The position numbers and the translations under genes are program-made. The notes beneath the pieces are model-generated. The model worked only from the letters and a program-made list of their open reading frames with translations, was not told the DNA's origin and made no database searches. From the sequence record PQ511150.1: 64,000 nucleotides of DNA; one strand, 5' to 3'. Each line of letters starts with the position of its first letter. Position 1 is the first letter of the stretch. This document shows positions 58,357 to 59,743 of the stretch, in pieces. The stretch comes from Escherichia phage NHEP29.

Positions 58357-58659
58357 TTATTTACCTTTAATTACTTTAGCTGCTTCGATAGCCGCTTGCT
58401 GAAGGTCATCCATAGACATACCGAATTTAGAAGCAAAGTTATCAATTTTCTTTTCGACAGCATTCAAAGGCTTGGCCTGTTTACCTTCATTAGCGCCAGG
58501 AAGAGCGAGAATACGCTCTTTGTCAATATAAAGGCTTACAAGTTTCTTACGGTCTTTATCGGACAAATCATGAAATGAATGGGCCTTTTTATTTATAGCG
58601 GATTCTAATTTACCTGCACTCACTCGAGCTTCAGTAATAAACTCTTGATATGTTTTCAT
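58357..58659 (-). CDS. internal protein (IpII-like) with capsid-targeting N-terminus
   Basis: 100 aa; N-terminal MKTYQEFITEA matches the T4 internal-protein capsid-targeting sequence; own GTTTAC/TATAAT promoter. Confidence 0.75.
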   Translation of the reverse strand: MKTYQEFITEARVSAGKLESAINKKAHSFHDLSDKDRKKLVSLYIDKERILALPGANEGKQAKPLNAVEKKIDNFASKFGMSMDDLQQAAIEAAKVIKGK

Positions 58660-58722
58660 TTTGTTTCCTTGTTTGTTTTGATAGAGTAATTATACCATAT
58701 TAATACTTAAGCGTAAACAATT

Positions 58723-58983
58723 TTAAGCTTTACCGCCGGAAATAATTCCGAAGTTGTTAAAATCGTATTCAATATCGTCAACATCTACTTTAGGACTTGC
58801 TACAACATAAGCAATTTCACTACGTTTTGCATAGGTGTTGATTTCTTTACCATCGCCACCTAAGAAAAAATACCCATTACGTTTTAATGAGCCAAAGTCT
58901 TCCGCATCACCAATGAAAGCTTTAACTTTAAATTTAGGACCTTTAGCATCTGCTTCAGTGATAAATTCTTGATACATTTTCAT
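58723..58983 (-). CDS. internal protein family member (86 aa)
   Basis: N-terminal MKMYQEFITEA capsid-targeting sequence; AAGGA SD. Confidence 0.7.
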   Translation of the reverse strand: MKMYQEFITEADAKGPKFKVKAFIGDAEDFGSLKRNGYFFLGGDGKEINTYAKRSEIAYVVASPKVDVDDIEYDFNNFGIISGGKA

Positions 58984-58989
58984 TTTTCC

Positions 58990-59403
58990 TTAGTAAATTG
59001 ATTTACCGTAGTATTTGTACCAAGTCGGACGTTGAGCAATTTTTTCATCTAAGCGAGCTTGACTTATCGCAATGGACGCTTCGGACGGGACATAATTATT
59101 ACGAAATTCGGCAGGGATGTCGGAAATATCCTGGACAGTCGTGTCCTTGATTTTGAAACCACGTTTCAAACATTCAGCGATTAGCTCGATTTGACGTAAA
59201 CGTAAAAATTCGAGTTTGTCGTAAAAGAACGTTACGTGACCTGTGCCTAAGATAAATGTTGGAGAGATTTTAAAATCCTTTACACGTTTACCGTTTTGAA
59301 CATGTTTACGGACTGCACCAAATACGCGTGGTAATTCACGATACTCAGCCATAAGATGTTGGTCGGTCAGTTCAGAAACAAGTGTTAAATTGATACGAGT
59401 CAT
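58990..59403 (-). CDS. denV: endonuclease V (pyrimidine-dimer DNA glycosylase)
   Basis: Start at Met5 ([12 protein letters not shown]...) gives 137 aa near-identical to T4 DenV as remembered. Confidence 0.95.
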
Positions 59404-59411
59404 AATTTCCT

Positions 59412-59460
59412 CCAAGTAGTTGATGAATGTATAGTATCAAAGTCCTTGGAGGAAGTAAAC
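59412..59460 (-). promoter_or_regulatory. T4-type early promoter (GTTTAC-18-TACTAT) with SD-sequestering inverted repeat
   Basis: minus-strand GTTTACttcctccaaggactttgaTACTATacattcatcaactacttggaggaaattATG. Confidence 0.55.
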
Positions 59461-59461
59461 A

Positions 59462-59743
59462 CTATTTTTCTGAAGCGCCTGAAATATATTTTTCAAGACG
59501 TTGTTTCATCAGCGAGCCGTTCTTAGCGATTTCTTCCGGTTTATCGCACATACGCAACAAGGCTTCAAGCTTAACGATATCACTGGTACGTTCAAATTTG
59601 CGAGTATCTATCTTACTAGCAAGTTCAGAAATACGTGCTAATAGACTTTCAGCTTCAACCAAAGCTGCACCTAGCTTAGTTGCAAATGTGTCAGTAGCTT
59701 CGTTAAGAATAGATTCTGATAAAAATTCACTATATGTTTTCAT
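59462..59743 (-). CDS. internal protein family member (93 aa)
   Basis: Start at Met6 gives N-terminal [10 protein letters not shown] capsid-targeting-like sequence; ATGA overlap with lysozyme stop. Confidence 0.65.

Follow-up and report, generated by a model that had tools for sequence, protein, structure and literature searches.

What do three small reading frames around denV do, in a genome of the RB69-like, T4-type genus Mosigvirus, if they begin with nearly the same ten residues and continue with unlike sequences? We asked whether they encode capsid-targeted internal proteins that would be injected into the host, and whether any of them may act on a defence untouched by the known internal proteins (Ips).

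Gene order and signals between e and vs.8

Three ip ORFs were confirmed at 58357..58659, 58723..58983 and 59462..59743, all on the minus strand of the window (the whole 64-kb stretch of DNA that was analysed). The coordinates given for the 100-aa, 86-aa and 93-aa ORFs in a preliminary description of this DNA were exact, its placement of denV among the ip genes (between the 93-aa and 86-aa ORFs) was right, and T4 does, as it said, carry ipII and ipIII at the equivalent locus; the strand is a detail absent from it. In the direction of the minus strand the genes run e, ip93, denV, ip86, ipII, denV relic and vs.8, with the following features.

59740..60228, minus strand: gene e, T4-type lysozyme (Pfam Phage_lysozyme, 8.2e-14), the upstream border of the hotspot
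59462..59743, minus strand: ip93, assigned to the Ip5 family of internal proteins, RB69ORF127c type (phrog_3499 'internal head protein', 1.2e-46)
59431..59460, minus strand: early promoter motif of T4 type, GTTTAC-N-GATACTAT, preceding denV (motif scan)
58990..59403, minus strand: denV, endonuclease V, a pyrimidine-dimer glycosylase (Pfam PF03013 (Pyr_excise), 3.6e-14; phrog_1183, 1.7e-62)
58723..58983, minus strand: ip86, assigned to the RB69ORF125c family of internal proteins (phrog_2667 'internal head protein', 8.9e-21)
58689..58718, minus strand: T4-type early promoter ahead of ipII (GTTTAC, 17 nt, TG-TATAAT; scan 10/12 plus TG extension)
58660..58722: variable cassette slot, the ip86-ipII interval (in relatives, Ip10 or IpIII lies between promoter and ipII)
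58357..58659, minus strand: ip100, assigned as orthologue of T4 IpII (Ip2) (phrog_7857, 8.4e-55, matched end to end)
58097..58356, minus strand: relic of a T4-like ipII-denV-vs.8 junction, in four pieces

The closest genomes belong to the Straboviridae, genus Mosigvirus, and dozens of deposited Mosigvirus genomes carry the same locus in the same gene order at 97-98% nucleotide identity; in RefSeq, all three genes are already labelled as internal head or virion proteins. The ip genes occupy the T-even hotspot e/denV/vs.8, one of two in T-even-type phages (the other is 57B/trna.4), and their presence or absence is polymorphic among related phages. The region is thus not unusual: locus, tag and cassette-like variability belong to textbook T-even biology and had been annotated before. 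The head genes are located beyond the 64-kb window. An Rfam scan of 57800..60400 gave no match.

All three ip genes are real genes and are under purifying selection (dN/dS 0.14-0.41 in the comparisons with enough differences). Gene e has the T4-like Shine-Dalgarno hairpin, and its TGA stop overlaps the ip93 ATG in an ATGA at 59743..59740, as read from the sequence. The denV gene, with its ATG at 59403 and its stop codon at 58990..58992, has 80% nucleotide identity to T4 denV; the start codon of ip86 follows 6 nt past the denV stop. Copies of the early promoter motif number 24 on the minus strand and 1 on the plus strand, against about 4 expected for both strands combined, and the same early-type motif is found at T4 ipI, ipII and ipIII. 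The ip86 gene has no promoter of its own and comes after the early gene denV. No canonical late promoter (TATAAATA) was found directly upstream of ip86 or ipII; the sole minus-strand copy of TATAAATA between 55000 and 64000, at 58597..58590, lies inside ipII, stems from an Ile codon and was judged a chance occurrence.

The relic beyond ipII consists of an early promoter (58354..58325), the denV start TAAAATGACTC (58303..58293), scraps from the denV 3' end, and a now frameshifted piece of 126 nt that is 97% identical to the T4 denV/vs.8 spacer and the 5' end of vs.8. In JS09, the equivalent remnant is annotated as truncated DenV.

The shared N-terminus and the bodies behind it

The motif MK(T/M)Y(Q/S)EF(I/L)(T/S)E opens all three ORFs (MKTYQEFITE in the 100-aa and MKMYQEFITE in the 86-aa protein). 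A six-frame scan of the 64-kb window with this strict motif and two looser versions returned only these three ORFs, and none of the versions occurred in 200 shuffles. All three likewise agree with the capsid-targeting pattern MKT(Y/F)xEF(I/L)xE, with its aromatic residue 4 and Phe 7. Genetics of T4 IPIII assigned residues 4 and 7 to head targeting and residues 8 and 10 to processing by the protease (PMC9026906); Y4 and F7 as well as I/L8 and E10 are retained in each of the three proteins. As predicted from sequence context, the gp21-type (I/L)-x-E site at residues 8-10 reads ITE|A in IpII, ITE|A in ip86 and LSE|S in ip93. Codons of the tag vary between cassettes, synonymously or conservatively, with M1, K2, Y4, E6, F7, I/L8 and E10 constant. 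Distant relatives of ip86, at 30-38% identity, all retain the tag (e.g. MKTYNEFIAE, MQTFHEFLVE, MKSFDQYIME, MKTFQEFINE), so that the tag is under selection and is no recent recombination scar.

Behind the tag the proteins differ. Body-only blastp, in which T4 IpII stood in for the 100-aa protein and phage mogra orthologues for the 86-aa and 93-aa proteins, gave nothing better than E ~2.8 among the three, and the predicted folds are unlike, all-helical for the 93-aa protein vs a small alpha/beta domain for the 86-aa protein. The bodies of the mogra ip86 and ip93 orthologues matched T4 IpI and IpIII at E 0.26 or weaker (blastp), and their best body-only match to the mogra IpIII orthologue had E 0.014.

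The preliminary description had proposed a T4-type capsid-targeting motif on unrelated bodies, and both parts were borne out, the motif by the six-frame scan and the shuffles, the unrelatedness by the body comparison and the folds. Its remark that the 86-aa and 93-aa cassettes appear different was correct as well, as these two lack homology to T4 IpI, IpII and IpIII past the first ~10 residues. Straightforward orthology to T4 IpII or IpIII, which it had named as speaking against its proposal, was found for the 100-aa protein (IpII, 92-93%) and not for the 86-aa and 93-aa proteins.

Three protein families and the exchange of cassettes between phages

On its alignments, the 100-aa ORF is a straightforward T4 IpII orthologue. 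The two proteins are 93% identical over residues 1-86 (BLASTP, E 9e-61) and 92% over full length, with 8 amino-acid differences, equal length, the same tag and a predicted cleavage site after E10; the genes share 95% of nucleotides, against 67-86% for most backbone genes compared with T4. The mature form is basic (pI 9.7). The gene lies downstream of denV and ip86, whereas T4 ipII is found between ipIII and denV. Searches of Pfam, NCBIfam and PADLOC with ip100 returned only sub-threshold noise (DUF7412, PbeC).

The 93-aa protein belongs, by sequence comparison, to the Ip5 family. It is 48-52% identical to Ip5 of T2, PP01 and RB70 over 90% of its length (the Ip5 record among its matches is the phage RB70 protein), tblastn gave E values of about 1e-12 to 2e-17 at 47-51% identity, and a profile search matched full-length Ip5 proteins (P0017-P0019) at E 1e-36 to 8e-41. 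With Ip5 it shares the PHROG family, the motifs KLG..AL.EAE and EIAKNGS.MK.RLE and a site at E15, a residue that is nearly invariant in the family: [LI]xE sites follow E10 and E15 in ip93 (LNE|A at 15). Its homologue in VR25 is annotated as ip5. The family name reportedly dates from 1994, and Repoila et al. 1994 are said to have described Ip5 of T2, T6, RB70 and PP01 as one of the polymorphic ip genes of the 'ipI' locus, 57B-trna.4. Differences from Ip5 concern the C-terminus, which is 8 residues longer in ip93, the tag, which with LSE at residues 8-10 is nearer to the IPII/IPIII type while Ip5 tags have ATE or ATK, and the position. The ip93 gene follows e through the ATGA overlap, and Ip5 sits at the other ip locus: the gene follows e in the window, RB69, ime09 and VR25, and the Ip5 genes of T2, PP01 and Bas37 adjoin 57B. 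This position is non-essential to membership in the Ip5 family and marks a distinct sub-lineage. In RB69, the tag of the reference ORF127c is scrambled. The AF2 model of ip93 has three helices (pLDDT 77), and Foldseek matched it to generic helical structures only in the PDB (E > 2).

For ip86, found in 217 phage records, the nearest named protein is RB69ORF125c, 93% identical (6 amino-acid differences) and encoded at the same place directly 3' of denV. No protein of the phrog_2667/RB69ORF125c family has been characterised, and the family takes its name only from the tag. The protein has one [LI]xE site, after E10, and an acidic mature form (pI 5.3). Its AF2 model is a small alpha/beta domain (pLDDT 79), linked in a BFVD fold search only to its own family and a protein of a Morganella T4-like phage. 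The AV117 allele carries Asp10. Decayed copies occur in some genomes (a 36-aa remnant in JS09, one frameshifted copy and one denV-ip86 fusion), so that the gene is often dispensable.

Neither ip86 nor ip93 had a significant match in Pfam, NCBIfam or PADLOC, nor a match below E 0.05 in a sequence search of the PDB. When 5.8 billion proteins were searched, and for ip86 also 1.8 billion cluster representatives, no convincing bacterial homologue emerged; each family had 11-12 clusters with phage-type relatives only, and long repetitive proteins matched at E > 1e-5. The fold searches pointed to no function for either protein. Bas37_0260 was considered as an Ip5 or ip86 relative, a kinship that would have pointed to a target, and rejected, as it matches ip86 and ip93 of the window only in residues 1-15; Bas37_0261 is the Ip5 orthologue.

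The locus is arranged in other ways in T4, ime09, RB69, VR25, STP4-a and Bas37, the last with zero ip genes between e and denV. In the window and in Shf125875 the ip86-ipII slot contains no gene; mogra has IpIII there, AV117 and JS09 have Ip10, and the indel edges in relatives are located at the '...AAAATGAAAAC' tag start. The ip93 gene is 98.6% identical in nucleotides to that of Tequatrovirus ime09, with flanking genes at 73-82%; ip93 and ipII together reach 95-99% nucleotide identity across genera in a backbone of 66-88%. As judged from these identities, both ipII and ip93 were transferred from one genus to another. In relatives, cassettes are gained and lost precisely at the tag-coding repeat. 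Recombination appears to use the repeated Shine-Dalgarno and tag-coding sequence, and whole cassettes are swapped between genera.

Candidate roles of the tagged proteins

T4 IPI* is an inhibitor of GmrS/GmrD (E. coli CT596). Recent work showed a separate GmrSD-type type IV restriction enzyme to be the target of each of the inhibitors T4 Ip1, Ip2 and Ip3, the ECOR21-type (BREX-embedded) GmrSD enzyme being that of Ip2, and argued that both Ip loci are hotspots for type IV inhibitors (PMC12373910). Bas37_0260, an unrelated tag-bearing protein at the ipI locus, inhibits McrBC (bioRxiv 10.1101/2025.11.20.689424). T4 IPI* and Bas37_0260 resemble the proteins of the window in the tag, in size (mature ~8 kDa) and in the hotspot logic, and the two provide a functional precedent. 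IPIII is required for growth on ECOR17, and tag-less IPIII works when expressed in the host. For ip4-ip10, no reproducible inhibition of GmrSD variants was observed (PMC12373910, Supplementary Fig. 9); by number, Ip5 falls within this set. Conditional essentiality of the Ip5 orthologue Bas37_0261 was not reported in HIDEN-SEQ screens. The literature that we consulted yielded neither virion proteomics nor injection data on the 86-aa and 93-aa families, and nothing usable on Mosigvirus virion proteomics.

The view of the preliminary description, that these are capsid-targeted internal proteins and candidate injected anti-defence factors, is supported by the sequence evidence together with current literature. 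Because one type IV enzyme is blocked by each of T4 Ip1, Ip2, Ip3 and Bas37_0260, anti-restriction is the best-supported role of the three proteins. We consider it likely that the locus is a hotspot of three tagged, head-packaged and injected proteins that block host nucleases and evolve by cassettes, and we infer their packaging, cleavage, injection and anti-restriction targets as follows. The first 10 residues of each protein would be the T4 capsid-targeting sequence, which by analogy to T4 IPIII would bind the scaffolding core during prohead assembly. The prohead protease gp21 would cut the tag off after Glu10, in the (I/L)-x-E context, and in the Ip5-type protein probably after Glu15. The mature protein of 8-10 kDa would be kept in the head with the DNA, be ejected into the next host, and there bind and block a specific host nuclease that cuts phage DNA with hypermodified cytosine. 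The IpII orthologue would most likely inhibit an ECOR21-type (BREX-embedded) GmrSD, as T4 Ip2 does, and the Ip5-family and RB69ORF125c-family proteins would most likely have other type IV restriction enzymes as their specific targets.

An RB69 ORF53_52c-like nucleotidyltransferase is encoded in the window between the polymerase gene and uvsX, and a gene of this type has been associated with ara-hmC synthesis (PMC6024577). Arabinosyl-hmC is probably the modification of the phage DNA, in contrast to glucosyl-hmC in T4, so that the natural enzyme met by ip100 may differ from that met by T4 IpII. Observations that run counter to the injected-inhibitor reading are that ip86 is acidic to neutral (pI 5.3) while T4 internal proteins are basic, that ip86 is without its own promoter and both ip86 and ipII are without a canonical late promoter directly upstream, that there are decayed ip86 copies and the null results for ip4-ip10 and Bas37_0261, and that neither the literature on virions nor the fold searches gave support.

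Three other explanations were weighed. If the tag is a general delivery device, ip86 and/or ip93 may be injected and yet be aimed elsewhere than at type IV restriction, with a different defence system, toxin-antitoxin modules and targets of host takeover as candidates. T4 Alt, likewise packaged in the head and injected, acts on RNA polymerase and further targets (PMC9026906); ip4-ip10 inhibited none of the active GmrSD variants tested, and the modelled folds, generic alpha/beta in the acidic ip86 and a helical bundle in ip93, resemble no known inhibitor. However, the small tag-bearing Ips of known target (Ip1, Ip2, Ip3 and Bas37_0260) are all directed at type IV enzymes, 4/4, and the authors of PMC12373910 see both Ip loci as inhibitor hotspots; we thus regard a different target as unlikely, though with an appreciable chance. 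A mainly structural function of the tag-bearing proteins, as scaffolding-core accessories or DNA counter-ions without a specific anti-defence target, would fit the ~360 copies of each IP per T4 head, the binding of T4 IPs to DNA at low salt and the slower head assembly and smaller bursts of IPIII mutants (PMC9026906), as well as the basic IpII orthologue (pI 9.7). It agrees less well with the acidic ip86, with the dispensability of T4 IPs on laboratory hosts and the specific restriction target now assigned to each of them, and with Bas37, which has zero ip genes from e to denV; variable presence, remnants and the exchange of cassettes between genera would be expected of an accessory gene in an arms race rather than of a structural part. 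We consider this explanation improbable.

Packaging itself might be doubted for ip86 and/or ip93, which could act intracellularly after de novo synthesis, the N-terminus being a gene-start recombination module. The T4-type early promoter motifs that drive denV-ip86 and ipII would suit such a function, but the motif is shared by T4 ipI, ipII and ipIII, which encode proven head proteins, and translation of ip93 is coupled to that of e, a late lysis gene. Indel boundaries fall within tag-coding DNA, the tag is scrambled in RB69 reference ORF127c, Asp at position 10, as in AV117 ip86, blocks processing of T4 IPIII (PMC9026906), and host-expressed IPIII works without the tag. Conservation, however, is seen at the peptide level, beyond DNA, with codon changes that are synonymous or conservative, and the tag is kept by relatives at 30-38% identity. 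Action without packaging therefore seems very improbable.

It is a tentative possibility that ip86 and/or the e-linked Ip5-like ip93 inhibit a defence untouched by the known Ips; candidate targets would be a type IV enzyme recognising DNA with arabinosyl-hmC, or a defence that belongs to neither the GmrSD nor the McrBC family. The locus could then readily supply a new injected anti-defence protein and give access to the host target of that protein. Its value is that of a candidate list rather than a discovery. Of all phage molecules, injected internal proteins are the first to face host immunity, and every internal protein characterised to date disarms one specific type IV restriction enzyme, which makes the RB69ORF125c-type and the e-linked Ip5-type proteins reasonable probes for new defences. 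In Enterobacteria, such probes could reveal restriction enzymes not yet described or further defences that act early, and would be especially relevant where these are directed against phages with arabinosyl-hmC, a type used in therapy collections.

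Three tag-bearing genes between e and vs.8

Every gene of the region is carried by the minus strand. The features from the upstream to the downstream border are as follows.

Genes of the locus
59740..60228, minus: e (lysozyme), upstream border of the hotspot
59462..59743, minus: 93-aa ORF (ip93), its ATG overlapping the e stop codon as ATGA
58990..59403, minus: denV, with a 58-nt spacer upstream
58723..58983, minus: 86-aa ORF (ip86), starting 6 nt past the denV stop codon
58357..58659, minus: 100-aa ORF (ipII), starting MKTYQEFITE, with a 63-nt spacer upstream
about 240 nt, minus: non-coding stretch between the 100-aa ORF and vs.8
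57542..58081, minus: vs.8, downstream border

The preliminary description of three ORFs with a common N-terminal tag, MK(T/M)Y(Q/S)EF(I/L)(T/S)E, on mutually unrelated bodies was borne out and had left out only the strand. When all 64 kb of the window were scanned in six frames, the motif, even much loosened, was found only at the three ORF starts, and it did not occur in 200 shuffles. Body-only blastp, in which T4 IpII and orthologues from the phage mogra stood in for the window proteins, gave no E < ~2.8 among the three bodies. Purifying selection acts on all three genes, dN/dS being 0.14-0.41 wherever the differences suffice.

The Shine-Dalgarno sequence of ip86, AAGGA, overlaps the denV stop codon. 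Mosigvirus ip86 begins MKM, which places another in-frame ATG two codons downstream (window 58977..58983); its Shine-Dalgarno spacing is better (9 nt vs 3 nt), and the protein length given in GenBank records is 86 aa or 84 aa. Since the VR25 and STP4-a homologues start MKT, the full tag is the ancestral form.

The 100-aa protein is 93% identical to T4 IpII over the BLAST alignment (92% full length) and spans phrog_7857 end to end (8.4e-55), which identifies it by sequence as IpII. The 93-aa protein falls in phrog_3499 (1.2e-46), shares 48-52% identity with Ip5 of T2, PP01 and RB70, and has a homologue named ip5 by the authors of VR25; it belongs to the Ip5 family and sits at a non-canonical position. 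The 86-aa protein is a member of phrog_2667 (8.9e-21), a family known by annotation alone and present in 217 phage records from Mosigvirus, the Gaprivervirus VR25 (75%) and Salmonella Gelderlandviruses (65-70%). When 1.8 billion cluster representatives were searched exhaustively with a profile, only a handful of distant relatives (30-38% identity) were added, all of which keep the tag as MKTYNEFIAE, MQTFHEFLVE, MKSFDQYIME or MKTFQEFINE. No match to the 86-aa or the 93-aa protein was found in Pfam, NCBIfam, PADLOC or, by sequence, the PDB.

In T4 genetics the first 10 residues of IPIII are enough for head targeting, with positions 4 and 7 important for targeting and 8 and 10 for cleavage (reviewed in PMC9026906). 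Y4, F7, I/L8 and E10 are present in all three window proteins. IpII and ip86 have one (I/L)xE site each, after E10, and in ip93 such sites follow E10 and E15, with two more within predicted helices. Since E15 is nearly invariant in the Ip5 family and Ip5 proper has no I/L at P3 of the E10 site, we infer that E15 is the family's cleavage site. The predicted cut would parallel that of T4 IPI, which is cleaved at ITE19.

Predicted mature proteins
IpII: 9.8 kDa, pI 9.7
ip86: 8.2 kDa, pI 5.3
ip93: 8.6 kDa, pI 8.1

AlphaFold models of moderate confidence (pLDDT 77-79) depict ip93 as a three-helix protein and ip86 as a small beta-alpha-beta/beta-alpha-beta domain; fold searches with both models were uninformative. 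Two tag variants were seen among relatives. The AV117 allele of ip86 (L005:14865-15125) has Asp at position 10 instead of Glu (MKMYQEFIID); in T4 IPIII, Asp10 leaves head targeting intact and blocks processing (PMC9026906). At the 5' end of the RB69 reference ORF127c, the ip93 homologue (L009:3140-3204), a compensated -1/+1 frameshift within the tag gives MKTYMNFYQNLS, by which E6 and the E10 site are lost and Y4, F7 and the E15 site are kept. A mutation in the laboratory strain or an error in sequencing could account for it.

Cassette exchange and history of the locus

Altogether, 540 phage records match the 2.1-kb region. The closest among the matches listed are Mosigvirus (RB69-like) genomes at 97.6-98.1% nucleotide identity, e.g. 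AV117, PNJ-6, Shf125875, mogra and AlbertHofmann. RefSeq labels the Shf125875 proteins 'internal virion protein (IpII)', 'internal head protein (similar to RB69ORF125c)' and 'internal head protein (similar to RB69ORF127c)', and RB69 has the same core of e, ORF127c, denV and ORF125c. The gene arrangement is widespread among deposited genomes. Comparison of twelve genomes revealed a hotspot that has e and vs.8 as its borders and denV between them.

Gene order in the hotspot
T4: e, ipIII, ipII, denV
ime09: e, ip93, denV, Ip4
RB69: e, ORF127c, denV, ORF125c, ORF124c (Ip10-like), ORF123c
VR25: e, ip5, denV, ip10, ip86-like, ip7
STP4-a: e, tag-bearing ORF, denV, three internal-protein genes (the middle one ip86-like)
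AV117: e, ip93, denV, ip86, Ip10, ipII
mogra: e, ip93, denV, ip86, ipIII, ipII
JS09: e, ip93, denV, 36-aa ip86 remnant, Ip10, IpII, truncated DenV
Bas37: e, denV; no ip gene
Window and Shf125875: e, ip93, denV, ip86, ipII

The slot between ip86 and ipII (58660..58722) is empty in the window, holds IpIII in mogra (L003:1861-2543) and Ip10 in AV117 (L005:14461-14864) and JS09. When the ip86-to-ipII intervals were aligned, each Ip10 or IpIII insertion began at a '...AAAATGAAAAC' tag start and ended at the next tag; therefore each cassette consists of a single tag, a single body and a short Shine-Dalgarno spacer. The indel edges lie exactly at the tag-coding 'ATGAAAAC' repeat, consistent with cassette gain and loss via recombination between repeated tag-coding sequences. 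The hotspot can be completely empty, since in the Tequatrovirus Bas37/KarlGJung (L013:6353-7323) denV directly follows e. Decayed ip86 copies (JS09 L012:2007-2117; protein records P0010, P0011 and P0030) include 36-38-aa forms with an in-frame internal deletion (phrog_35655), a copy with a frameshift and a 54-aa protein in which the N-terminus of denV is fused to the C-terminus of ip86; ip86 has been lost repeatedly through deletion.

Cassettes have also been exchanged between genera. The window ipII is 95% identical in nucleotides to the T4 copy, compared with 67-86% for most neighbouring genes (vs.6 93%). A sharply bounded example is ip93, 98.6% identical to the copy in the Tequatrovirus ime09 (L008:2501-2782), where flanking e reaches 82% and denV 73%.

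Downstream of ipII, 58097..58356 (minus) is the fossil of a T4-like ipII, denV, vs.8 arrangement.

Parts of the relic
58354..58325, minus: T4-type early promoter
minus: first denV bases including the start codon region, TAAAATGACTC
minus: scraps of the denV 3' end
minus: 126 nt matching the T4 denV/vs.8 spacer and the T4 vs.8 5' end at 97% identity, frameshifted

The relic is shared by AV117 (98.7% identity) and missing from Shf125875 and mogra, and its JS09 equivalent is annotated as truncated DenV. The simplest history would be in two steps: a T4-type (ipIII), ipII, denV block inserted into an RB69-type e, ip93, denV, ip86 locus, after which the duplicate denV degenerated and the window's lineage lost the slot cassette. 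Among the 40 matches listed, the alignment of each of the 5 that cover the relic is split in two, implying a slot cassette (verified for AV117 only), and the empty-slot matches align only from query base 101, leaving most of the relic stretch unaligned. Therefore the loss in the window phage looks independent.

Expression signals

The T4 early-promoter motif GTTTAC-N16-18-TAnnnT occurred 24 times on the minus strand of the window and once on the plus strand, with ~4 expected for both together. Three copies lie at the locus: ahead of denV (59460..59431), ahead of ipII (58718..58689) and in the relic (58354..58325). Others nearby are at 56168..56140 and 62753..62724. As in T4, short inverted repeats overlap several of the copies. 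Because T4 ipI, ipII and ipIII, like denV, bear the same motif, an early-type promoter is no argument against head packaging.

Coupling links ip93 to e, a late lysis gene across whose ribosome-binding site CCTCC...GGAGG can pair as a hairpin (60233..60253), as in T4, where the hairpin silences early transcripts. Upstream of e, degenerate TATAAATA-like late boxes (AATAAATA, TATAAAC) take the place of two T4 TATAAATA boxes. No canonical late promoter was found directly upstream of ip86 or ipII. The sole minus-strand TATAAATA, the T4 late-promoter core, within 55000-64000 lies in the ipII coding sequence (58590..58597); it is probably due to chance, because an Ile codon absent from T4 creates the match.

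Proposed anti-restriction function and probable DNA modification

T4 IPI* blocks the GmrS/GmrD enzyme of CT596 (PMC3012670). Growth on ECOR17 needs IPIII, which works without its tag when plasmid-borne (Srikant et al.). Ip1, Ip2 and Ip3 were each shown to inhibit a single, distinct GmrSD variant without cross-protection, no reproducible interaction was seen for ip4-ip10 against active GmrSD variants, and both Ip loci were proposed to be hotspots of type IV restriction inhibitors (Silas et al. 2025, PMC12373910). According to a 2025 preprint, the tag-bearing Bas37_0260 from the ipI locus inhibits McrBC. That locus holds both this inhibitor (bas37_0260) and Ip5 (bas37_0261); Bas37_0260 was rejected as a relative of the window proteins, the Ip5 orthologue being its neighbour Bas37_0261.

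By analogy, the IpII orthologue quite likely has anti-type-IV-restriction activity; its 8 substitutions could shift specificity. Judged at the level of the class only, ip86 stands an even chance of such activity, and for ip93 its presence and absence seem equally plausible.

Between DNA polymerase (24752..27463) and uvsX (16893..18065) lie two proteins (window 20608..23894, minus strand), one of 561 aa whose N-terminus is a nucleotidyltransferase domain and one of 386 aa that is Peptidase_U32-like; they fit the RB69 ORF53_52c module in position and size. The RB69 module has been linked to arabinosyl-hmC synthesis (Thomas et al., PMC6024577), and therefore the phage DNA is probably ara-hmC, not glucosyl-hmC.

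Every sequence-level defining feature of the T-even internal-protein system was found at the locus, and its interpretation as such in the preliminary description was well founded. Judged from these features, the locus is a member of that system and would work likewise. The shared tag on diverse bodies, the polymorphic loci and the anti-restriction role are already established, so the finding is real, not new; the remaining interest lies in which targets the ip86 and ip93 families may have in a phage that probably carries arabinosylated DNA.
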